Of a DNA stretch of 64,000 nt, positions 12,206 through 53,462 are shown piece by piece (position 1 is the stretch's first letter; every line of letters starts with the position of its first letter). The notes beneath the pieces are model-generated. The model did not search any database and had not been told where the DNA came from. It saw only the letters and a program-made list of their open reading frames with translations. The stretch lies in IMG/VR virus record IMGVR_UViG_3300021185_003351, positions 32,001 to 96,000 of that record. The stretch is one strand, 5' to 3'. The stretch comes from a virus. Both the position numbers and the translations under genes were made by a program.

Positions 12206-13786
12206 GTGAGTAACAAGCAAAACATAAAAAAAATAATACAGGAGCAATATAAAAAATGTGCTCAAGATCCTGTTTATTTTATGCGTCAATATTGCTATAT
12301 TCAACATCCAATTAAAGGTAAAATAAAATTTAATTTATTTCCATTTCAAGAAGAATCATTAACTACATTACAAAAAAATCGATATAATGTAATTCTAAAA
12401 TCTAGACAATTAGGTATATCAACATTATCTGCAGGGTATGCATTGTGGTCAATGTTATTCAATGAAGATTTTAATGTATTAGTAATTGCAACAACTCAGG
12501 ACGTTGCAAAAAATTTAGTAAGTAAAGTTCAAATAATGAACGAAAACTTACCTAGTTGGTTAAAAACAAATATAGTTACTAATAATAAATTATCATTAAA
12601 ATTTGCAAATGGATCAGAAATTAAAGCAATATCAAGTTCTTCTACAGGTGCACGTTCTGAAGCATTATCATTATTAATAGTCGACGAAGCTGCATTTATT
12701 AGAAACATTGAAGAAATTTGGGTAGCATCTCAAGCAACATTATCTACTGGAGGTGGAGCTATTGTATTATCTACTCCTAATGGAATTGGTAATTGGTTTC
12801 ATCAAACATGGGCTGATGCTGAAACTGGAGTAAATGGCTTTGAAACAATTAAACTAGATTGGAAATTACATCCAGAACGAAATCAATCGTGGAGAGACGA
12901 ACAAACACAATTATTAGGAGAAAGAGGAGCAGCACAGGAATGTGATTGTGATTTTATATCTTCCGGTCATACCGTTGTAGATGGATTAATATTACAAAAA
13001 TATGAATCTAAATGCGAAGAGCCTGTAGAAAAAAGAGGATTTGATAACGGATATTGGATATGGGAATATCCAAATTATGAAAAAAATTATATTATTGTAG
13101 CTGATGTTGCTAGAGGTGATGGCGCAGATTGGTCGACATTTCATGTTATCGACGTAGAAACAATAAATCAAGTTGCAGAATATAAAGGTAAATTACCTCC
13201 AAAAGATTTTGGAAATATGTTAGTAACTATTGCAACTGAATGGAATAATGCGTTGTTAGCAATTGAAAATGCAAATATAGGATGGGCTGCAATACAACCA
13301 GCATTAGATAGAGGATACCAAAATTTATTTTATACATATAAAGATGATGGATATGTAGATTTAGAGGTTCAACTATTAAAAGGATATGATCAAAAAGATA
13401 AAACAAAAATGGTACCAGGTGTTTCAACTACTTCAAGAACCAGACCATTAATGATATCTGCATTAGAAATGTATATGAGAGAAGGCTCTCCTATAATACG
13501 TTCAAAAAGATTAATTCAAGAATTATTTGTATTTGTGTGGTTAAATGGTAAAGCACAAGCACAAGTTGGATATAATGACGATTTAGTAATGGCGTATGCT
13601 ATTGCGTTATGGTTACGAGATACTAGTTTAAAATTAAGACAACATGGAATTGAATTAAATAAAAGAGCATTATCACAATTTCAAAAATCAGATAATATAG
13701 TTTATACTAATAAAAATAAATCACAAAGTGAAGACTGGGATTGGAATAACGGTCGAGACAATGAAAATTTAACCTGGCTTCTGTAG
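12206..13786 (+). CDS. Terminase large subunit (T4 gp17-like)
   Basis: Walker A KSRQLGIST, Walker B LLIVDEAAF, STPNG motif, nuclease ADVARGDGAD and NDDLVMA. GTG start. Confidence 0.96.
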   Translation: MSNKQNIKKIIQEQYKKCAQDPVYFMRQYCYIQHPIKGKIKFNLFPFQEESLTTLQKNRYNVILKSRQLGISTLSAGYALWSMLFNEDFNVLVIATTQDVAKNLVSKVQIMNENLPSWLKTNIVTNNKLSLKFANGSEIKAISSSSTGARSEALSLLIVDEAAFIRNIEEIWVASQATLSTGGGAIVLSTPNGIGNWFHQTWADAETGVNGFETIKLDWKLHPERNQSWRDEQTQLLGERGAAQECDCDFISSGHTVVDGLILQKYESKCEEPVEKRGFDNGYWIWEYPNYEKNYIIVADVARGDGADWSTFHVIDVETINQVAEYKGKLPPKDFGNMLVTIATEWNNALLAIENANIGWAAIQPALDRGYQNLFYTYKDDGYVDLEVQLLKGYDQKDKTKMVPGVSTTSRTRPLMISALEMYMREGSPIIRSKRLIQELFVFVWLNGKAQAQVGYNDDLVMAYAIALWLRDTSLKLRQHGIELNKRALSQFQKSDNIVYTNKNKSQSEDWDWNNGRDNENLTWLL

Positions 13787-13820: not shown

Positions 13821-15650
13821 ATGGCGTCGTTAAGAAAACGTTTACAAAACCTATTTAGTACCAATGTAGTAGTTAGAAAATTTGGAAAAGATAAACTACG
13901 AGTAGTTGATACAAATAGATTACAATCAACTGGTAATTTAGCTGCAACAAAAATTACTGATCGATATTCTAGATTACATGGATCAAATCGACATGGATAT
14001 GGATCATATGGATCTGCATTTGGAGGATATGATTCAAATTATTATTCTCAACAAAATAGAAAACAATTATATACAGATTATGAAATGATGGATAAAGATC
14101 CTATTATTTCTTCTGCATTAGATATATATTCAGATGAGTCTACATTAGAAGATCAGTTTGGAGATATCCTATCTATTAAAACAAATAAGACACATATACA
14201 AAAAATATTATATAATCTATTTTATGATGTTTTAAATATTGAATTTAATATGTGGCCATGGGTTAGGAATATTTGTAAGTATGGAGACTTCTTTTTAAAA
14301 TTAGATATTTCAGATGAATTAGGAATAATTAATGCTAGACCATTATCATCATATGAAATTGAAAGACTTGAAGAATTTGATTCTGAATCTGGAGAATATA
14401 ATATTAAATTCAGACACGACATTAGTGAAAATGTACAATATGATGTATTTGAAATAGCACATTTTAGAATGTTATCAGATTCAAATTTTTTGCCATATGG
14501 TAGATCGATGTTAGAAGGAGCTAGACAAGAATTTCAAAAACTAACAATGTTAGAAGACGCAATGTTAATTCATAGAATTATGAGAGCTCCAGAAAAAAGA
14601 ATCTTTAAAGTTGATATTGGCAATATTCCACCAAATGAAGTTGATACATTTATGGAACAAATTGTTAATAAAATGAAAAAGGTTCCATATGTTGATAAAA
14701 ATACCGGAAATTATAATTTAAAGTTTAATTTAAATAATATGTTAGAAGATTATTATTTACCAGTAAGAGGTGGAAATAGTCAAACACAAATTGATACATT
14801 ACCAGGTATGGAATTTACTGGTATTGATGATATTGAATATGTAAAAAATAAAATGATGGCAGCTTTAAAAATTCCTAAACCATTTTTAGGATATTCTGAA
14901 GGGGTTGAAGGAAAAAGTACATTAGCTTCTATGGATATTAGATTTGCTAGAACAATCGAACGAATTCAAAAAATTATTTGTTCTGAATTATCAAAAATTG
15001 CAATAGTTCATTTGTATGCACAGGGGTTTGAAGGAGAAGATTTAATTGGTTTTGAATTATCATTAACTCCACCTTCAATTATATATGATCAACAAAAAGT
15101 TGCACTAATGAATGAAAAAATTACTTTAGCAGTTGCAATGAAAGATTCAAAACTAGTATCAGACAAATACATTTATGAATACATATTTAATATGTCTGAA
15201 GACGAATGGTTAGAAGAAAGAAATAATGTTGTAGAAGATCTTAAACTAAGATTTAGACAAAATCAAGTAGAGCAAGAAGGAAATGATCCAACATTAACTG
15301 GAGTTTCATATGGTACTCCACACGATTTAGCCTCCATGCATATGAGCACCGATGATGTTGAAGATAAAGATCAAGGCGGCCGTCCACCTGAAGGAATAAA
15401 ATACGGACAGCATAAAAATCATATGGGTTGGGATCCTACCGGAGGAAAAACAGTTAAACAGGCAATGAATACAACATTCCAACCAGATCCTAGATTTAAA
15501 ACAACTACTAAAACTGGCATGAAACCTGTAGCTACAGAAAATGCTGATATTTTAAAAAAAATTAATAAAAGTAGATCTAAAATACTATTTGAAAAAAATA
15601 AAAAAAATAAAGATTCTGGATCAATTTTAGATGAAAATAATATTTTATAA
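13821..15650 (+). CDS. Portal protein (T4 gp20-like)
   Basis: MLEDAMLIHRIMRAPEKRIFKVDIGNIP, EDYYLPVRG, IDTLPG and ALKIPK motifs. Follows the terminase. Confidence 0.96.
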   Translation: MASLRKRLQNLFSTNVVVRKFGKDKLRVVDTNRLQSTGNLAATKITDRYSRLHGSNRHGYGSYGSAFGGYDSNYYSQQNRKQLYTDYEMMDKDPIISSALDIYSDESTLEDQFGDILSIKTNKTHIQKILYNLFYDVLNIEFNMWPWVRNICKYGDFFLKLDISDELGIINARPLSSYEIERLEEFDSESGEYNIKFRHDISENVQYDVFEIAHFRMLSDSNFLPYGRSMLEGARQEFQKLTMLEDAMLIHRIMRAPEKRIFKVDIGNIPPNEVDTFMEQIVNKMKKVPYVDKNTGNYNLKFNLNNMLEDYYLPVRGGNSQTQIDTLPGMEFTGIDDIEYVKNKMMAALKIPKPFLGYSEGVEGKSTLASMDIRFARTIERIQKIICSELSKIAIVHLYAQGFEGEDLIGFELSLTPPSIIYDQQKVALMNEKITLAVAMKDSKLVSDKYIYEYIFNMSEDEWLEERNNVVEDLKLRFRQNQVEQEGNDPTLTGVSYGTPHDLASMHMSTDDVEDKDQGGRPPEGIKYGQHKNHMGWDPTGGKTVKQAMNTTFQPDPRFKTTTKTGMKPVATENADILKKINKSRSKILFEKNKKNKDSGSILDENNIL

Positions 15651-15687
15651 TTAACATCATATTTATATGAAAGAACCATGAACTAAC

Positions 15688-16539
15688 ATGAAAACTCTTA
15701 AACATTCAAAATATAAAAATACTGCTATTCTTTTTGAGATGTTAGTAAGGAAACTTACATCGGAAACATTGACGTCAGATAAAACAATTACAGTTGAAAT
15801 TATTAAAAAGTATTTTGGTAAAAATACAGTATTATCAAAAGAGCTACAATTATATAATTCTTTAATAAAAGAATCATTTAAAACTGAAGCTCAATCATTA
15901 GAATTTATTAGAAGTTGTAAAGAAGCTCATACTAAATTAAATAAAAGTTCATTACGTAGACAACGTTATAATTTAGTGAAAGAAATATCAGAAAATTTTG
16001 ATTTTCAAAAAGTTTCTAAAATACGTATAAATAATTATAAAGAATTAGCATCTATATATAAAATATTTGAATATTCTAATTCTGATAATCCTAAGGATTT
16101 ATTGGAATGTAAAACTGTTATCGTTGAACATATATTAAATGATAGTAATACGTCAACTAAAAAAGATGTTGTATTAGAAACATATAAAAAACACGATAAA
16201 GAAGTTAGAATGTTAGCATATAAATTATTAGTTGATAAATTTAATTCAAAATATTCATCTTTAAACGAAAATCAGAAACAAGTTTTAAATCAATATATAA
16301 CTCACGTTAATGACACTGAATCTTTAAAATTATATTTAGAAGGTATATTACCAAATATTAAATTACAACTAAAAGAACAAGTATTAAAAATTCAAGACCC
16401 AGTTACAAAAATAAAAGTTGATAAACTTTCTGATATGTTATGTAATGTTAAAACAATAAAAGTAGTTAAAGAGTCTCATATTTTGTCAATATTAAGATAT
16501 TTTGATTTAATTAAAGAACTAAAACAGGTAAACAAATGA
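15688..16539 (+). CDS. Head-module hypothetical protein
   Basis: 283-aa helical ORF between portal and protease, with TATTTATA upstream. Confidence 0.65.
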   Translation: MKTLKHSKYKNTAILFEMLVRKLTSETLTSDKTITVEIIKKYFGKNTVLSKELQLYNSLIKESFKTEAQSLEFIRSCKEAHTKLNKSSLRRQRYNLVKEISENFDFQKVSKIRINNYKELASIYKIFEYSNSDNPKDLLECKTVIVEHILNDSNTSTKKDVVLETYKKHDKEVRMLAYKLLVDKFNSKYSSLNENQKQVLNQYITHVNDTESLKLYLEGILPNIKLQLKEQVLKIQDPVTKIKVDKLSDMLCNVKTIKVVKESHILSILRYFDLIKELKQVNK

Positions 16540-17237
16540 AGTCATTTTTACACGAAATAGAATCTAAATTTACACGTCTTCAAGAAAAAGATTGGGACGG
16601 TGATGGAAAAGAAGAATCTCCAAATGATGAATATATGGGAGTTAAAGACAAAGCTATTAAAAAAGCAATGAAGAAAGAAAACTCTAAGCCAGATTTTTTA
16701 GATTTAGATAATGACAATGATACTGAAGAGTCTATGAAGCAAGCAGCCAAACAAGCAAATGAAGTCATAAAAACAAATGATCCAGATGCTGCAGCAGACA
16801 TGCAAAAAAAGAATCCTAATGTAGATATTGAATTAACAGAAGATGAACTTGGCGAACAAAATGTAACTGGTGCAATTGCTGGATATCAAACCCCAAATGC
16901 ATTTTCAACAAAAGCTCAAGCAAAAAAGAAAAAGAATATGAAATATGAATCTGTACAAAAAGCTATGGATACAAAATATGAAGCTATGATTGAATCATAT
17001 TCTAAATTTGCAACTGGTAATCCAAAGTCTACACCATCACAAACAGTAAATGGTACCATTAAAGAAGTTGCAAAAAAATTACAAGAGATAGAACAAATAG
17101 TTAAATATACATCTAAATTAAAGACCGAATCTGGTATAGCTGGATCGTCATATGGAAAATCTACTCATACAGCATTAAATAAAATTTCAGAAAGATTATT
17201 AAAAATATCTGAACGTGTAAGAAGCTTAGGAGAATAA
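16536..17237 (+). CDS. Probable prohead core/internal head protein with DxDxDG-like loops
   Basis: DWDGDGKEES and PDFLDLDNDNDTEESMKQA loops, several LxE sites, head-module position. Confidence 0.55.
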   Translation: MKSFLHEIESKFTRLQEKDWDGDGKEESPNDEYMGVKDKAIKKAMKKENSKPDFLDLDNDNDTEESMKQAAKQANEVIKTNDPDAAADMQKKNPNVDIELTEDELGEQNVTGAIAGYQTPNAFSTKAQAKKKKNMKYESVQKAMDTKYEAMIESYSKFATGNPKSTPSQTVNGTIKEVAKKLQEIEQIVKYTSKLKTESGIAGSSYGKSTHTALNKISERLLKISERVRSLGE

Positions 17238-17238
17238 T

Positions 17239-17865
17239 ATGAATAAAAATTTATTAGTAGAATATATTCCATTTAAACCAATAGGGCCAATTAATGAACA
17301 AATGGCTAATAAATTTGGAGTTCCAGGTGGGTTAGTAGTACAAGGCGTTTTACAAAGAGCTGGAGCTAAAAATCAAAATGGACGTGTTTATCCTAAAAAT
17401 ATATTAGATAGAGAAGCTAAAAAATATCAACAAGAATATATTAGTCAAAACAGAGCGTTAGGCGAATTAGATCATCCAGAATCATCAGTTGTTAATTTAA
17501 ACAATGTATCTCACAATGTTTTAAAAATGTGGTGGCAGAATAACGATTTAATGGGAGCTGTACAAATATTAGAAACCCCAGCTGGTAAAATATTAAAGTC
17601 GCTATTTGATGCTGGTATTACATTAGGAATATCTAGTAGAGGATTAGGATCAGTAAAAGAATTATATAAAGAGTCTGCAGTTGAAGTTCAAGAAGATTTT
17701 GAATTAATTTGTTTTGACTTTGTTTCAAATCCGTCTACCCATGGCGCATTTTTAAAACCAATGAATGAATCAATTAATAAAAATACAAAACAAAATTATA
17801 AAAAAGTAAATGATATTATTACATCAATTTTATGTGATAGTGGAAAATGTAGGATTTTACCATGA
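17239..17865 (+). CDS. Prohead protease (T4 gp21-like)
   Basis: NQNGRVYP, ALGELDHP, LGISSRGLGS and DFVSNPS motifs. Confidence 0.95.
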   Translation: MNKNLLVEYIPFKPIGPINEQMANKFGVPGGLVVQGVLQRAGAKNQNGRVYPKNILDREAKKYQQEYISQNRALGELDHPESSVVNLNNVSHNVLKMWWQNNDLMGAVQILETPAGKILKSLFDAGITLGISSRGLGSVKELYKESAVEVQEDFELICFDFVSNPSTHGAFLKPMNESINKNTKQNYKKVNDIITSILCDSGKCRILP

Positions 17866-18227
17866 GAATAAAAGATTTATTAGAAGCATTAGATAGAGAG
17901 CAAGTTGAAATACCAAAAGAGAAAAAACGTGAATTTGTAGAAGCAGTAAGAAATTACTCTCAATTAGGCGAATCAGTATATGGTAAAGGTGATCTTAAAG
18001 AATTATGTCAAAAGATACACTATATGGTAGAAATGGCTCAACAAGTAACATTGTCTGAAGGCGATTGGTTTGATGGTATTACTGTTAATAGACACATGAA
18101 AGGACTTAACGAATCATATAAAGTATTTGAAAAGACTGCTCAAGAAATATCTAGACTACAAGAAAGACTATCTGCATCATATGAAGATATTGGTCAAGGA
18201 TTAAGTAAATATTTTGATATAAAATAA
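17862..18227 (+). CDS. Hypothetical head-module protein
   Basis: 121-aa ORF coupled to the protease by an ATGA overlap. Confidence 0.65.
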   Translation: MRIKDLLEALDREQVEIPKEKKREFVEAVRNYSQLGESVYGKGDLKELCQKIHYMVEMAQQVTLSEGDWFDGITVNRHMKGLNESYKVFEKTAQEISRLQERLSASYEDIGQGLSKYFDIK

Positions 18228-18229
18228 TT

Positions 18230-18257
18230 TTGAATTTATAAAAAAAATTATTATAAT
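18230..18257 (+). promoter_or_regulatory. Second-class (sigma70-like) promoter TTGAAT-16-TATAAT
   Basis: The same layout (TTG/TGGA box, A-tract, TTATTATA) recurs at 30860, 50580 and 62280. Confidence 0.5.
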
Positions 18258-18270
18258 ATAAAGGAAGTAA

Positions 18271-18654
18271 ATGTCAAACATTGATAATACATATCGTCAA
18301 TATTTTGGAATGAAATCACAAACTAATGAAGCTGATTTAATAAATAAAATATCAGATTACAAGGGTGGATTTCTTTATAAACTAATTGATCCAGCTACAG
18401 CAGGTAATGTGAAAGCCGATATTCAAGCATTTTTAAATAAAAAAGGAATGCATGTTATAAAAACAAAATTTGACGATGCAGCTGGTAAAGGATTCTTTTA
18501 TGTTAGATTAGGAGAAGATCCTGCAAAAGAATCTCAGAGAATACAAGGATTTGTAAGTCAACTACCAGAAGTAGAAAAATTTAAATTTACATTAAAACCA
18601 ATACAAAAAGTTACAAACAATCCATCAGATGAACAAACAACACAAATACCATAA
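18271..18654 (+). CDS. Hypothetical protein
   Basis: 127-aa ORF with an AAGGA RBS, overlapping the bS21 start. Confidence 0.65.
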   Translation: MSNIDNTYRQYFGMKSQTNEADLINKISDYKGGFLYKLIDPATAGNVKADIQAFLNKKGMHVIKTKFDDAAGKGFFYVRLGEDPAKESQRIQGFVSQLPEVEKFKFTLKPIQKVTNNPSDEQTTQIP

Positions 18655-18865
18655 ATCAATAGTACCAGGAAATTCTTTTTCAACGAAAGTAATTAATAAA
18701 GATATAAACTTTGCTTTACGATCTTGGAAAAAACAACTTAAAATATCTAATACATTAGATACATTAAAAGAAAAACGAGAATTTGAAAAGCCTAGTGTTA
18801 CCAAAAGAAAAATTAAAAATTCTGCAATTTTTAATCAATATATACAAGATTTAAAATCTTTATAA
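18629..18865 (+). CDS. rpsU: Phage-encoded ribosomal protein bS21
   Basis: V...DINFALRSWKKQ...L..LKEKREFEKPSVTKR matches the bS21 pattern (ALR.FK...R..(Y/F)EKPS..R). Small and basic. Confidence 0.88.
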   Translation: MNKQHKYHKSIVPGNSFSTKVINKDINFALRSWKKQLKISNTLDTLKEKREFEKPSVTKRKIKNSAIFNQYIQDLKSL

Positions 18866-18907
18866 TATATTTTCATTTTTTTTATTTCGTCTATATTTAT
18901 AGTAAAT

Positions 18908-18971
18908 ACACTATCTCTATATAGTGTCAATTATTATTAATTTATTCTATTAAGATTTACAAATAATCTTA
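18908..18971 (+). promoter_or_regulatory. Twin-hairpin 5' leader of the scaffold/capsid operon
   Basis: ACACTAT/ATAGTGT (18908-27) and TAAGATT/AATCTTA (18951-71) lie between TATTTATA (18894) and AAGGAG (18990). Confidence 0.5.
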
Positions 18972-19002
18972 TTTCCAAAAACAAAATTTAAGGAGACAAG
19001 TA

Positions 19003-20022
19003 ATGGACGGAAAATCGGACTTACTAAAAGAAGCGATCGCTGACGCAAAAGCCGTAAAGGAAACTGCATTAGCAAACGCTAAAATAGCTCTTGAAGAGGC
19101 TTTTGCCCCTAGAATTGAAGCAATGCTATCAACAAAACTTTCTGAAGATTTATATGAAGACGAAATGGAAGACGAAGTACCAGCGCCAGTAGCCGATACA
19201 CCAGTTGAAGAACATGACGTTATGTATGAGCCTGAAGTAGAAGGTGGAGAGATGGATGCTGCCCCTGCACCAGAAATGGATGCCGAAATTGATATGGATA
19301 TGCCTGCTGAAGAACCAGTAGTTGCAGATGACATGGAAATGGAAGGTATGATGGATGATGCACCAGTAGACACAGACAGCGTTGAAGAAGATCTAGAACT
19401 AGAAGCAATCATAAGAGAGTTAGAAGAAGATTTAAATGAAGAAGAACTAACTGAAGAAGATATCTTTGAATCAAATGATTCTACAGATTTAACTGAAGAG
19501 GATAAAATGGTCGACGACAAAAAAGAAACCAATGAAGAATTCAATATTGATGAAATCATTGAAGGTATTTTGTCTGAAGACGAAGAAGAAAAAGACTCTA
19601 AAGAAAAAGTAGAAGAAGAAAAAGAAGAAGATGAATCTAAAGAAAAAGTAGAAGAAATGACTGAAGAATTAACTGAAGCATATGATACTATTGAATCTTT
19701 AAGAGGCACAATCAACGAAGTTAATCTTTTAAATGCAAAACTTTTATATACTAACAAATTATTTAGGAATTTTGAATTATCAGAAAGTCAAAAAATGACT
19801 GTTATCGAAAATTTCGATAGAGCTGGTAATACAAGAGAAGTTAAACTCGTATTTAGTACATTAGCAGAAAATTTTACAGTTCCTGTAAAAAAGAGAAAAG
19901 TAGTTAAAGAAGGCACTGCCTCTAAAGCAATTAACTCTACTGCTCCTGCAACTAAAACAATAATCAACGAAGGTAATGAATTAGCTAACAGATGGAAGAA
20001 GTTAGCAGGATTACTAAGTTAA
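19003..20022 (+). CDS. Prohead core scaffold protein (T4 gp22-like)
   Basis: Very acidic coiled-coil protein directly upstream of the capsid gene, with many LxE sites and C-terminal RWKKLAGL. Confidence 0.85.
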   Translation: MDGKSDLLKEAIADAKAVKETALANAKIALEEAFAPRIEAMLSTKLSEDLYEDEMEDEVPAPVADTPVEEHDVMYEPEVEGGEMDAAPAPEMDAEIDMDMPAEEPVVADDMEMEGMMDDAPVDTDSVEEDLELEAIIRELEEDLNEEELTEEDIFESNDSTDLTEEDKMVDDKKETNEEFNIDEIIEGILSEDEEEKDSKEKVEEEKEEDESKEKVEEMTEELTEAYDTIESLRGTINEVNLLNAKLLYTNKLFRNFELSESQKMTVIENFDRAGNTREVKLVFSTLAENFTVPVKKRKVVKEGTASKAINSTAPATKTIINEGNELANRWKKLAGLLS

Positions 20023-20047
20023 TTAAAAAAAAATAAGAAAGAAAAAA

Positions 20048-21691
20048 ATGAAAATTTCATCTTTACTAGAAGACAATAATCCTTCCCAAAGAAATGCAGC
20101 GTTAAAAACTGTAACAAAATGGGAAAAGACAGGTCTTCTAGAAGGTTTAAAAACCGAAACAGAAAAAGCAGGTATGGCTCAGCTTCTTGAAAATCAAGCT
20201 AGACAACTTGTAAAAGAAGCATCATCAACTGGTACTACTGAAGGATCAGAAGAATGGGCTGGTGTAGCTTTACCATTGGTAAGAAGAATCTTTGCTGAAT
20301 TTGCAGCAAAAGAATTTGTTTCTGTACAACCAATGAATTTACCATCTGGACTAGTATTTTATTTAGATTTCAAATATGGAACTGAAAAAGCTGGATTTGA
20401 TGGTGATAATTTAAATGTAGCTGGCGATCCTTTTGGATCACCAAATGCTGACGATTCCATGTTTGGTGTAACAACTACTGCAGGAGATCCAACTGGTGGT
20501 CTTTATGGTGCTGGTAGATTTGGTTACTCACTCAATGATGTAGCAGTTACTGCTTCAGCTGTTGTTTCAGCAGCATCATCTGCATCTGTAAATTACGATT
20601 CATCATTTACTGGCAATAAATTATCTGAATATAACGTAGTAACTGTACCGTTAACATCGTTATCAGGTTCAGATTCAACTGCAGTTAGATCATTTATTAT
20701 CGAAACTGGATCTGGTACAATTGTGCAACATTCTGCATTTACAAAATTAAATGCTGCAAAAACTCATGTTGAGTTTTTAGTATCTGGATCAGCTGCATCA
20801 ATGACTGGTGTTGAATACATTGTTAAATTTAGTGAGCAACCAACTGACATCTCTAGAGGCGACTTTGAAGATTCAAATCCTTTTAAAGGTTCTGGTGCTG
20901 GTACTGGTATCAATAATGGTACTGATATTGACATTCCTGAAGTTAACTTAGAAATGCAATCAGATCCAATCGTAGCTAAGACTAGAAAGTTAAAAGCTGT
21001 TTGGACTCCTGAATTTGCACAAGATTTAAATGCATATCATTCAATTGACGCTGAAGCTGAATTAACTTCAATGTTAAGTGAATATGTATCAATGGAAATT
21101 GATCTTGAAATTCTAGATATGTTAATCAATGGTGCATTAACAACTGAATATTGGTCAGCTCAATCTAATCAATTCTTGAACGCAGCTGGTACAGCTTTTG
21201 AAGGAAGAGATGTTTCTGCAGGCGGATATTATAATACACAAGGAGAGTGGTTCCAAACTTTAGGAACTAAACTTCAAAAAGTATCTAACAAAATTCATCA
21301 AAAAACACTTAGAGGTGGTGCTAATTTCTTAGTTACTTCACCTGCTGTTGCAACTATCCTAGAATCTATTCCTGGATTTGCTGCTGACACAGATGGTAAC
21401 AAAATGGAATTTGCTGCTGGTGTTCAAAAAATTGGTGCAATCAATAATAGATACACAGTATATAAGAATCCATATATGAAAGAGAACGTAATCCTTATGG
21501 GTTATAGAGGAGCACAATTCCTTGAAACTGGTGCAGTATATGCTCCATACGTACCTTTAATTATGACTCCACTAGTATACGATCCTGTTAATTTCACCCC
21601 AAGAAAAGGTGTAATGACAAGATATGCTAAGAAAATGGTAAGACCAGAATTCTACGGTAAAGTATATGTTGCTGGATTAGACACTATTTAA
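20048..21691 (+). CDS. Major capsid protein (T4 gp23-like)
   Basis: PLVRR, VSVQPMNLPSGLVF, AKTRKLKAVWTPEFAQDL, YAPYVPL and FTPRKGVMTRY motifs. Confidence 0.97.
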   Translation: MKISSLLEDNNPSQRNAALKTVTKWEKTGLLEGLKTETEKAGMAQLLENQARQLVKEASSTGTTEGSEEWAGVALPLVRRIFAEFAAKEFVSVQPMNLPSGLVFYLDFKYGTEKAGFDGDNLNVAGDPFGSPNADDSMFGVTTTAGDPTGGLYGAGRFGYSLNDVAVTASAVVSAASSASVNYDSSFTGNKLSEYNVVTVPLTSLSGSDSTAVRSFIIETGSGTIVQHSAFTKLNAAKTHVEFLVSGSAASMTGVEYIVKFSEQPTDISRGDFEDSNPFKGSGAGTGINNGTDIDIPEVNLEMQSDPIVAKTRKLKAVWTPEFAQDLNAYHSIDAEAELTSMLSEYVSMEIDLEILDMLINGALTTEYWSAQSNQFLNAAGTAFEGRDVSAGGYYNTQGEWFQTLGTKLQKVSNKIHQKTLRGGANFLVTSPAVATILESIPGFAADTDGNKMEFAAGVQKIGAINNRYTVYKNPYMKENVILMGYRGAQFLETGAVYAPYVPLIMTPLVYDPVNFTPRKGVMTRYAKKMVRPEFYGKVYVAGLDTI

Positions 21692-50945: not shown

Positions 50946-50999
50946 GTTTTTCCGTTAATGAATCATATTTATAATAAACATAATTAGAGGAGACAACTA

Positions 51000-53462
51000 A
51001 TGGCCGAAAGAATAGTATCGCCAGGTGTATTTACAATAGAAAAAGATCAATCATTTTTACAACGAGGAGTTAGTGAAATTGGAGCATCAATAGTAGGATC
51101 AACATTAAAAGGTCCAGCTCAAGTTCCTACAAAGATAGGATCATTTTCTGAATTCCAAGAAATATTTGGAGGATATACCGATGAATCATATGTACCATTT
51201 ACAGTACAAGAATATTTAAAAAATGCAGGTACCATTACAGTAACAAGATTATTGTATGAAAATGGATATAATTTACAAAATGGCGTATTAGCTATTGTAG
51301 CTGAATCAGGATCTGTTTCAGAAGTGACTCATTTATTACATCCAACACAACCAGTATCAACTACAGGTGATTCAAATGTATTTGAAGAGTCATTATTTGA
51401 AAATTTAAATTCTGGATCTTTTAAACTAAAAGTTTCTGGAGCATTTGCGACGGATTCATCAATACCAGGATATTCGGCATATTTAACTACTGACTTTATT
51501 TCTGCATCATTAGATTCAACATCTAATAGTTATATCACAAAGATATTTGGAAATAATCCTAAATCAGTAAATTATCCAGTTTATGTGCAATACGAAAACA
51601 AAAATGCATTTTCATTATTTAATCAAAGTAGTGAAATATCAATGAGTTTAGCAATTGTAGATAAGTATCAATTTCTTCAAGATTTTCAAGCAGCATCTAC
51701 TCCGTATATAACATCACAACAAATAACAGGTGGGTCTTCTATAGACTTATTTAAATTTCATACATTATCTCATGGTAACGTAGAAAATTTTGATGTTAAA
51801 GTTGGAGTAAGAGATATTAAAGTTTCATCAGAAGTATCAGATCCAAATGGATATGGAACATTTACATTAGAAGTAAGAAGAGTAAATAATCAACATTTAC
51901 CTACTTCCCCTTTTGATTCTGATGACACAGACAAATCACCAGACATAGTAGAACAATTTACCAATCTTAATTTAGATCCAGATTCTCCTAATTATATAGT
52001 TAGAAGAATTGGCGATCAATTTAGAACTATTGATAGTGACGGTAAAATATATGATAATGGTGATTATCCAAACTTATCAAAATATATAAGAATCGAAGTA
52101 ACTGAAAATGTTAAAGCAAAAGCGATAGACGCATCTTTAATACCATTTGGTTTTAGAGCAACAAATTCTCCAATTCCAGATGTATCAGGATCTGCAGGTA
52201 ATTTAAACCTAGGTGCAGTATCATATATATCATCTCAAGTAATAGGAAGTTCATATAGTTCAAAAAATTATTTTGGATTTGATTATACAAATTTAAATAA
52301 CTTAAATTATTTAGCACCATTACCAACTTCAGGTTCAAATACAGGTTCAAATACTGATTTTTACTTAGGAAATGTATCACAAGCAGCTGAAGCTAATTTT
52401 CCAAGTATAGCTGGTGCCTATTCTGGATCCATAGGAACATCATTAGACGCCGGTAGGTTAGCAACAGAAATATCAATTAATACTAGAAAATTTATGGTAC
52501 CATTCCAAGGTGGATTTGATGGATCAAAACCTAATTTACCTAAAATGATTGGAACTAATATTAAATCTTCAAATACATTAGGATTTGATTGTAGCACTTC
52601 AACCTCAACTGGAACATTAGCATATAGAAAAGCATTTGCAGCACTATCAAATACCGATTTCTTTGATATGAACATGTTAATTACACCTGGATTAATAGAC
52701 AGATTACATTCAAGTGTAACAGCAGAAGCTAGACAATTAGCAGAAGATAGACAAGACACATTTTACATAATGGATGCAGGAGCTGTAACAGATTCAATTT
52801 CAACCGTTGTTAATCAAGTTAATTCAATTGATTCAAATTACACTGCAACATATTTCCCATGGGTGAGAATAGTTGATCCAGGAAAGAATAAGCCAATGTT
52901 TGTTCCACCATCTGTAGTAGTACCTGGAGCATTATCATTTAACGATACAGTAGCAGCACCATGGTATGCACCTGCAGGATTAAATAGAGGAAGTTTAACG
53001 TCTGTAATTAATACATATGAAAAATTGACTCAATCAAATAGAGATGAGTTATATGAATCTAGAGTTAATCCAATAGCAAATTTTCCAAATCAAGGAATTT
53101 GTATATGGGGACAAAAAACTCTTCAATCTAGACCATCTGCATTGGATAGAGTTAATGTTAGAAGACTATTGATAACTGTTAAGAAATTTATTGCTTCGTC
53201 AACTAAATTTTTAGTATTTGAACAAAATACAACCGCAACTAGAAATAGATTTTTAGCTATAGCAAATCCGTATTTAGAAAGTGTTAGATCACAACAAGGA
53301 CTTCATGCATTTAGAGTTGTAATGGATGCAAGTAATAATACACCAGATTTAATAGATCAAAATATATTATACGGACAAATATTTTTACAACCAACTAGAA
53401 CGGCAGAATTTATAGTATTAGACTTTAATATTCAACCAACTGGTGCTTCATTCCCAGAATAA
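51000..53462 (+). CDS. Contractile tail sheath protein (T4 gp18-like)
   Basis: SPGVFTIEKD, PWYAPAGLNRG, WGQKTL, LDRVNVRRL, FEQN and PTRTAEFI motifs. Confidence 0.96.
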   Translation: MAERIVSPGVFTIEKDQSFLQRGVSEIGASIVGSTLKGPAQVPTKIGSFSEFQEIFGGYTDESYVPFTVQEYLKNAGTITVTRLLYENGYNLQNGVLAIVAESGSVSEVTHLLHPTQPVSTTGDSNVFEESLFENLNSGSFKLKVSGAFATDSSIPGYSAYLTTDFISASLDSTSNSYITKIFGNNPKSVNYPVYVQYENKNAFSLFNQSSEISMSLAIVDKYQFLQDFQAASTPYITSQQITGGSSIDLFKFHTLSHGNVENFDVKVGVRDIKVSSEVSDPNGYGTFTLEVRRVNNQHLPTSPFDSDDTDKSPDIVEQFTNLNLDPDSPNYIVRRIGDQFRTIDSDGKIYDNGDYPNLSKYIRIEVTENVKAKAIDASLIPFGFRATNSPIPDVSGSAGNLNLGAVSYISSQVIGSSYSSKNYFGFDYTNLNNLNYLAPLPTSGSNTGSNTDFYLGNVSQAAEANFPSIAGAYSGSIGTSLDAGRLATEISINTRKFMVPFQGGFDGSKPNLPKMIGTNIKSSNTLGFDCSTSTSTGTLAYRKAFAALSNTDFFDMNMLITPGLIDRLHSSVTAEARQLAEDRQDTFYIMDAGAVTDSISTVVNQVNSIDSNYTATYFPWVRIVDPGKNKPMFVPPSVVVPGALSFNDTVAAPWYAPAGLNRGSLTSVINTYEKLTQSNRDELYESRVNPIANFPNQGICIWGQKTLQSRPSALDRVNVRRLLITVKKFIASSTKFLVFEQNTTATRNRFLAIANPYLESVRSQQGLHAFRVVMDASNNTPDLIDQNILYGQIFLQPTRTAEFIVLDFNIQPTGASFPE

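Follow-up and report, generated by a model that had tools for sequence, protein, structure and literature searches.

Shine-Dalgarno boxes on virion genes accompany a phage-encoded bS21 in a phage of a probable Bacteroidota host

Bacteroidota ribosomes retain an anti-Shine-Dalgarno (anti-SD) sequence that is almost never used, and bS21 is by far the commonest phage-encoded ribosomal protein, with a role that has been guesswork since 2019. Both puzzles meet in a 64,000-nt stretch of phage DNA (the window), which comprises bases 32001-96000 of the 172,973-bp IMG/VR virus record IMGVR_UViG_3300021185_003351 (100% complete according to CheckV). It carries a bS21 gene at 18629-18865, among virion genes that are often preceded by Shine-Dalgarno (SD) boxes. 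Could the phage bS21 be working with these boxes? On balance, we lean towards the view that phage bS21 works with SD boxes on the abundant virion genes in an SD-blind host, as comparisons of related sequences suggest. An original prediction, made from the letters of the window, had proposed a ribosome switch of this kind. It was partly supported: the presence of bS21 was tied to SD use in orthologous late genes, but the Phe residue that it had singled out failed as a determinant, and the C-terminal helix of the protein is of host type.

The open reading frame (ORF) at 18629-18865 is a bS21 homologue in the head module, as had been predicted. Its scores exceeded the cut-offs of Pfam PF01165 Ribosomal_S21 (31.4 bits, cut-off 27) and NCBIfam TIGR00030 (30.4 bits, cut-off 28.95), and its PHROG match was phrog_21469, ribosomal protein S21. 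The 173-kb genome holds this one bS21 gene only, which falls within the known class of phage bS21 and is in itself not unusual. The elements of the gene are as follows.

18604-18628, + strand: bS21 leader without an SD core, as read from the sequence
18629-18865, + strand: phage bS21 gene, 78 aa (PF01165, TIGR00030, phrog_21469)
18629-18697, + strand: N-terminal extension, about 14 residues beyond cellular bS21; basic, aromatic, motif K..K.H..IVPG
18830-18832, + strand: TTT codon for Phe68, at the Tyr54 position of F. johnsoniae bS21 (HMMER alignments to 7jil_z and 9i5v_9)

We calculated SD use with a home-made, SD-agnostic gene caller, which takes the first ATG of greedily picked ORFs; a start was scored as SD-led if an SD core of at least 4 nt lay at a spacer of 3-12 nt. 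SD cores were found before 30.0% of the 223 starts genome-wide, compared with 11.6% of internal ATGs and 9.2% of shuffled leaders, and cores of at least five nucleotides were similarly enriched (15.2% vs 4.5% in the control). The predicted enrichment over shuffled leaders was thus borne out, at about threefold over the controls. The spacer peaked at 5-7 nt and was tight at 4-8 nt, and matches reached 7 nt (TAAGGAG, AGGAGGT). All 12 SD-like boxes quoted in the original prediction were present, within 1 nt of the positions it gave and 4-7 nt before the called start. Four of the boxes are listed here.

17228-17232, + strand: SD box AGGAG, 6 nt before the prohead protease start
18261-18265, + strand: SD box AAGGA, 5 nt before the ORF at 18271-18654
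18989-18995, + strand: SD box TAAGGAG, 7 nt ahead of the scaffold start codon (19003)
50988-50992, + strand: SD box AGGAG, 7 nt before the tail sheath gene

SD use had been called pervasive. The enrichment is real, but the word overstates it, since about one third of the genes carry a box and these are concentrated in the virion module. The spread of SD along the genome was uneven (heterogeneity, p = 0.023): by 10-kb bin, the fraction was 33-64% in the virion module and 0-14% in other blocks. Six of seven replication and repair genes had no SD (UvsX, replicative helicase, DNA polymerase, two nucleases and an SbcC-like gene), and the ribonucleotide reductase gene has AGGAG. In the SD-less leaders the A-profile peaked at -14 to -11, as in Flavobacterium phage immuto, in the related genome G205 and in Bacteroidia, although the correlations were weak (0.38-0.51).

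The association between bS21 and SD use was explored in capsid-centred IMG/VR loci from three scans, with at most 80 loci per scan out of roughly 600. For each locus, a bS21 gene in the slot between protease and capsid was scored by a local profile together with SD use, and loci counted as lacking bS21 had to cover the slot. We found that, among 143 loci, the 101 with bS21 had a median SD fraction of 0.55 (interquartile range (IQR) 0.45-0.62) and the 42 without it a median of 0.09 (IQR 0.05-0.17), a highly significant difference (Mann-Whitney, p = 2e-20). The same was seen gene by gene among orthologues.

Protease orthologues with SD: 90/106 in kin with bS21, 1/23 in kin without
Capsid orthologues with SD: 54/63 in kin with bS21, 0/25 in kin without
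Scaffold orthologues with SD: 71/74 in kin with bS21, 0/3 in kin without, where few orthologues were found
Adaptor orthologues with SD: 33/37 in kin with bS21, 1/13 in kin without

The genes of low-copy proteins were mostly SD-less even in loci with bS21 (terminase 8/57, portal 4/83). The capsid leaders contained AAGGA or AGGAG in kin with bS21 and G-free runs of A and C in kin without it, and the orthologue starts aligned at residue 1.

Whole genomes gave a similar picture. In the four genomes with bS21 (this phage, G000, and its relatives G202, G204 and G206), SD was found before 25-32% of starts compared with 9-12% in the controls; SD was depleted in G205, which lacks bS21 (7.5% vs 20.7%), and in immuto, which also lacks it (5.0% vs 19.5%). 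The SD bias was regional in G206 (p = 2e-6) and G202 (p = 3e-4), whereas Pelagibacter phage HTVC008M, whose host reads SD, carried SD on 54% of its genes and spread it evenly (p = 0.92). Along G206, two blocks (20-50 kb and 90-120 kb) had bins with only 0-9% SD, compared with 29-86% for the virion blocks. Within coding regions, SD-like motifs reached 0.10-0.14 per site window in G000, G202, G204 and G206, compared with 0.20 in immuto and G205 at similar G+C, a difference to which codon usage may contribute. Such motifs were also depleted before internal ATGs in G206 and G204.

On the capsid tree, the bS21 state changed six times, and four of the contrasts were well supported; SD use followed in three to four of them, with zero discordant cases. 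Two added IMG/VR scans still left four supported contrast pairs. The link between bS21 and SD across the kin therefore appears strong but is not proven, because only 4-6 transitions are independent. bS21 was also not the sole gene to follow this pattern: the ORFs at 16536, 17862 and 18271 (16536-18654) had orthologues in 82-109 loci with bS21 and in 0-5 loci without it. These ORFs could be partners of bS21 or clade-specific prohead core proteins.

The argument also depends on the host. We consider it very likely that the host belongs to the Bacteroidota, because the genome encodes a type IX secretion system (T9SS) sorting domain, its bS21 is nearest to Bacteroidota bS21, and its closest cultured relative infects Flavobacterium. 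The T9SS is a system of the Bacteroidota and the Fibrobacterota-Chlorobiota-Bacteroidota (FCB) group. The domain ends a 1038-aa protein and scored 54.7 bits against TIGR04183 (cut-off 23); the gene lies 42.5 kb past the window end (G000:C1:138503-141619; also L214). In G206 the domain scored 52.4 bits, two more genomes with bS21 had weaker T9SS matches, and none was found in five partial kin genomes, which are fragments and therefore uninformative. The bS21 family profile scored best on the chain of the P. gingivalis ribosome 9i5v (44.9 bits; PMC12123416) and next on that of F. johnsoniae 7jil (40.8 bits), with at most 34 bits on Firmicutes and at most 28 bits on Proteobacteria ribosome structures. 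The closest cultured phage is immuto, with 57% amino acid identity in the capsid protein.

As a baseline, 20 random genomes, sampled at the level of the class Bacteroidia, were run through the same pipeline. Only 6.1% of their starts had SD vs 14.3% in the control, which is a depletion. In Bacteroidales loci the values were 13.6% and 14.8% for the control. Two genomes flagged as unpublished, G167 and G089, entered one of the genome tallies, and none of our claims depends on them. Published work likewise describes Bacteroidota hosts and Cellulophaga phages as SD-poor. The predicted SD-blind Bacteroidota host thus gained support from the T9SS cargo, the Bacteroidota-type bS21 and the Flavobacterium phage kin, and remains probable only.

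The phage protein differs from cellular bS21 at its N-terminus. It agrees with the Bacteroidota type in its aromatic residue at position 54 and its weakly basic C-terminal region and departs from it in length, with 78 aa including the extension compared with about 63-65 aa without one; the core motif begins near residue 24 rather than near residue 10 as in cellular Bacteroidia bS21. In the kin alignment, residues M1, K3, K6, I11, P13 and G14 of the extension were invariant, and the extension was under stricter conservation than the C-terminus. The core motifs FALRSWKK and FEKPSVTKRK were invariant or nearly so in 13 kin and aligned to solved bS21 chains. An AlphaFold2 model (mean predicted local distance difference test score 74) had helices at residues 26-40, 42-48 and 55-77, and residues 1-25 had no regular structure. 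A Foldseek search of this model against the PDB gave nothing significant; the sole hits were mitoribosomal bS21m chains with E-values of 0.2-1.1.

The family is well represented in metagenomes. Forty metagenomic homologues matched the phage protein over its full length, and a profile search of 1.84 billion representatives returned 1111 relatives, most of the top ones with the same N-terminal extension. A tblastn search with the protein against cultured phages gave zero matches, and a scan of genome contigs with the pattern of the phage-family alignment gave 39 pattern matches, of which 0 were confirmed.

In the bS21 of F. johnsoniae, Tyr54 contributes to hiding the anti-SD by stacking on A1534; Jha et al. 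(2021, PMC7797042) counted F and Y as similar. The original prediction had suspected a Phe in the place of this Tyr, and the alignment indeed put F68 there; the close kin have Y, F or H. A change from Tyr to Phe was tried as the switch and rejected: it is a conservative aromatic change, it was already present in the data of Chen et al. (2022, PMC9723584), whose phage bS21 had Tyr, His and, in one case, Phe at the corresponding site, and it does not track SD use among the kin. The median SD fraction was 0.54-0.56 whether the residue was Y (n = 32), F (20), R (24) or K (7). Beyond position 54, the tail (NQYIQDLKSL) contains a single basic residue and is Bacteroidota-like, whereas kin of the R and K types have at least five. 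The bS21 of G206, a 178-kb phage (L275:8500-8754), has Arg-54 and a basic tail and is nearer to proteobacterial and mitochondrial than to Bacteroidota bS21.

The leader of the bS21 gene is itself SD-less, and this was general: SD preceded 0 of 109 orthologous bS21 genes in kin and 2 of 80 distinct kin genes, compared with 77-96% for the neighbouring genes. A conserved leader, AAATTTAA...GTTATATG, precedes bS21 in many kin. The bS21 start overlaps the upstream ORF 18271-18654 by 26 nt (18629-18654), which suggests translational coupling. A terminator scan downstream of bS21 found none.

We also found a motif, ATATTTATA, that may be the late promoter of this lineage, the counterpart of TATAAATA in T4. 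The 9-mer had 27 matches in the window compared with 15.3 expected, and the motif was 8.5-8.8-fold enriched upstream of genes. Two copies concern the genes discussed here.

15659-15667, + strand: late-promoter-like box ATATTTATA, heading the gene run from 15688 through bS21
18893-18901, + strand: late-promoter-like box ATATTTATA, ahead of the scaffold and capsid genes in the gap of 137 nt that follows bS21

SD preceded 50% of the genes that follow a late-like box, compared with 26% of the rest (p = 0.006); a p-value of 6e-4 was also obtained for the association of SD with the box. Many virion genes have the box at a distance of 10-110 nt upstream, with copies on the + strand at 1795, 7698, 9984, 13793, 15659, 18893, 25310, 28798, 30886, 36354, 45633, 47542, 50103, 50965, 53477, 54698 and 55703. 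The related k-mers CTATTTAT and TATTTATA were also enriched in immuto, G205 and G206. By k-mer enrichment, the late-like box was shared, whereas early-like k-mers differed between genomes with and without bS21. Just past the box at 18893 lies a 7-bp inverted repeat (ACACTAT / ATAGTGT, 6-nt loop; 18909-18928), which would place it at the very start of the scaffold/capsid transcript. A search of intergenic DNA for the Bacteroidota promoter consensus (TTG-N17-21-TAnnTTTG) gave too few sites to judge.

The mechanism that we propose would run as follows. The host is probably a marine, Flavobacteria-type member of the Bacteroidota. In this group bS21, bS18 and bS6 hold down the anti-SD tail of the 16S rRNA, and because of this both host mRNAs and the early and replication mRNAs of the phage would be SD-less. 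The phage bS21, whose gene appears to close a late transcription unit for head morphogenesis, would be made late from an SD-less, host-style leader and would exchange into 30S subunits. The anti-SD would then be made usable, either through release of the tail or through stabilisation of the SD/anti-SD duplex, possibly via the basic N-terminal extension. A privileged route to initiation would then open for the late mRNAs with SD, which encode protease, scaffold, capsid-associated, connector and sheath proteins. McNutt et al. (2023, PMC9976891) have shown that F. johnsoniae can use SD once its own bS21 is lost or mutated, and Mizuno et al. (2019, PMC6375957) that a phage bS21 enters E. coli ribosomes. 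The family binds the 30S platform beside the 3' end of the 16S rRNA, and among phage proteins only that one has been shown to take this place. A more detailed version, to which we give slightly less than even odds, makes bS21 a specificity switch: its late exchange would open an SD-dependent channel usable only by virion mRNAs, its own SD-less gene would be made by native ribosomes and shut down by converted ones, and the activity would reside in the extended N-terminus and not in residue 54.

Several observations weigh against the cooperation of bS21 and SD boxes as outlined above. With its aromatic residue 54 and its non-basic tail, the C-terminal helix resembles that of the host and taken alone would predict continued sequestration, as Chen et al. 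(2022) argued; nor does the sequence give any hint that phage bS21 releases the anti-SD. That the protein enters ribosomes, acts on the anti-SD, does so through its extension and is made at the right time are all steps that we infer. bS21 is seemingly co-transcribed with SD-led genes and not ahead of them. SD stands before just 30% of the genes of this phage, and its own capsid gene has no SD and an A-rich leader (20023-20047), as the original prediction had noted. One related locus, L292, encodes a bS21 of 71 aa whose extension is short and whose residue 54 is Arg (L292:5886-6098), about 4 kb upstream of the capsid gene and outside the usual slot, and yet has 5% SD. Phylogenetically independent evidence is thin, with a sign test on the 4-6 contrasts giving p = 0.125-0.25. 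As to the host, which was deduced from its markers, the T9SS domain was found in just four of the nine large (>100 kb) genomes with bS21 that were searched. Genome G216 (locus L458) has a bS21 of nearly the same type as that of Microcystis phage Mel-JY01 and yet a T9SS match of 37 bits; either T9SS does not mark the host perfectly or the hosts assigned within this clade are in need of a check, a warning on the use of T9SS as a host marker. Finally, the hosts of the lineage span phyla, from Flavobacterium (immuto) to Microcystis (Mel-JY01).

This last point opens another explanation. Host shifts occur in the lineage and could therefore drive both bS21 and SD use: sublineages with bS21 would live on moderately SD-reading hosts (cyanobacteria, SAR11-like bacteria or non-Bacteroidia members of the FCB group) and those without it on SD-blind Bacteroidia, so that SD would mirror the host and bS21 would be kept for some other reason. 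Within the same capsid lineage, the slot is filled in Mel-JY01 by a basic bS21 that is not of the Bacteroidota type, and SD reaches 47% in the structural locus of that phage; the Flavobacterium phage has neither. By their C-termini the bS21 proteins can be divided into Y/F, R and K types, as though each were fitted to a different host, and the R type is not Bacteroidota-like; the difference in early-promoter-like k-mers and the small number of transitions behind the correlation point the same way. However, strong T9SS domains are present both in this genome and in G206, which is of the R type, and the Y/F-type bS21 is closest to that of Bacteroidota. In G000, G202 and G206, replication genes and small-gene blocks have as little SD as the genes of Bacteroidia (0-10%), whereas a phage of an SD-reading host spreads SD evenly, and none of the 109 bS21 genes of the kin is SD-led. 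We regard a host shift as unlikely, though still to be taken seriously.

A little less probable again, in our opinion, is that phage bS21 is a like-for-like substitute. In this case it would replace or top up host bS21, so that ribosomes stay complete and the anti-SD stays occluded during host shut-off, or it would evade a defence, as Chen et al. (2022) proposed; SD would act by another route, such as bS21-free 30S subunits building up during infection or a co-inherited factor, for example the ORFs at 17862 and 18271. Chen et al. (2022) read 61 phage bS21 in this way, the aromatic residue 54 and non-basic C-terminal helix are conserved in the nearest kin, and three further ORFs co-vary with bS21. 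Yet substitution gives no reason for SD boxes to occur only where bS21 is present, R- and K-type proteins without the sequestering residue show equal SD use, and the stricter conservation of the N-terminal extension than of the C-terminus points to an added function. It may also be asked whether the boxes have any role in initiation, as AGGA-type motifs could arise from composition, from upstream coding sequence or from miscalled starts. The genome has 30% G+C and A-rich leaders, short purine motifs are common, and the gene caller was home-made. This explanation is largely refuted by the threefold enrichment over internal ATGs and shuffles, by the tight spacing and matches of up to 7 nt, by the alignment of orthologue starts, and by the depletion that the same caller finds in kin without bS21 and in Bacteroidia. 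We thus return to phage bS21 working with SD boxes as the reading that we favour.

The genome belongs to a T4-like myovirus with 30.2% G+C and zero tRNA genes. By PHROG matches, the module runs in the order terminase, portal, protease, two unknown ORFs, bS21, scaffold-like and capsid, with adaptor, sheath and tube further on. The bS21 gene lies on the + strand in the same direction as its neighbours, among the terminase, portal, protease and capsid genes.

12281-13786, + strand: large terminase (phrog_2, E 5.5e-47), no SD; the ORF may begin at GTG 12206
13821-15650, + strand: portal protein (phrog_213, E 5e-64), no SD
17239-17865, + strand: prohead maturation protease (phrog_207, E 3.4e-56)
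18271-18654, + strand: ORF of 127 aa of no known family, no Pfam or PHROG match
19003-20022, + strand: scaffold-like protein, acidic, 339 aa; role suggested by position and composition, no family match
20048-21691, + strand: major capsid protein, 57% amino acid identity to the capsid protein of Flavobacterium phage immuto; A-rich leader, no SD
51000-53462, + strand: tail sheath (phrog_23, E 3.2e-65)

The unknown ORFs between portal and scaffold had zero matches to Pfam or PHROG. The scaffold-like gene is syntenic with the gene preceding the capsid gene in immuto, Mel-JY01 and HTVC008M.

The standout feature of this locus is the gene-specific tie of bS21 to SD on abundant late proteins in a probably SD-blind host, together with the SD-less leader of the bS21 gene. 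Such a pattern is consistent with the phage protein making the anti-SD available to late phage mRNAs. The co-occurrence gives phage bS21 a testable job. If the model is true, it would explain both puzzles raised at the outset, and it would provide a natural example of a virus that gains a translation channel for itself through the exchange of a single replaceable ribosomal protein. The joint presence of bS21 and of SD boxes on late genes offers a simple genomic marker for such phages, and the idea is directly testable in existing F. johnsoniae systems.

A link between bS21 and SD in phage genes is absent from Mizuno et al. (2019), from the excerpted text of Al-Shayeb et al. (2020, PMC7162821), from Chen et al. 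(2022) and from McNutt et al. (2023), and full-text searches of the library used found it in no other paper. HTVC008M, studied by Mizuno et al. (2019), is likewise a T4-like aquatic myovirus with bS21, and its protein entered E. coli 70S ribosomes; however, that bS21 is host-like (65.7 bits to Pfam) and lies outside the protease-capsid slot, and SD is even on 54% of the genes. For the rpS21 of huge phages, the excerpted text of Al-Shayeb et al. (2020) describes a basic, aromatic N-terminal extension and proposes RNA binding and competition for ribosomes; the protein studied here has such an extension too, but SD usage is there examined for rpS1 and not rpS21, and the present genome, at 173 kb, is not that of a huge phage. 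Phage immuto (MW353175) shares the order of the head module, a similar late-promoter-like k-mer and 57% capsid identity, whereas it has no bS21 anywhere in its genome and its gene starts are SD-depleted.

The freshwater Bacteroidetes myoviruses of Chen et al. (2022, PMC9723584) are similar in that terminase, portal, prohead protease and capsid genes surround bS21, that the residue in the place of Tyr54 is aromatic and that a Bacteroidetes host is predicted. The idea that it favours late phage mRNAs is also shared, with late expression in their data and a late-promoter-like context here. Their bS21 lies on the reverse strand, whereas ours runs in the same direction as the genes around it. In their reading the protein is host-like and the anti-SD blocked, and they did not analyse SD or ribosome-binding sites of phage genes, whereas we found that late-gene SD co-varies with bS21. 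The bS21 of F. johnsoniae (PMC7797042; PMC9976891) is alike in family, C-terminal helix, aromatic residue 54 and the logic of bS21-dependent SD recognition, and differs in lacking the conserved N-terminal extension of about 14 residues. The host rpsU gene has an extended SD and is best translated by bS21-free ribosomes, whereas the phage gene is SD-less and is in this respect the mirror image of host rpsU.

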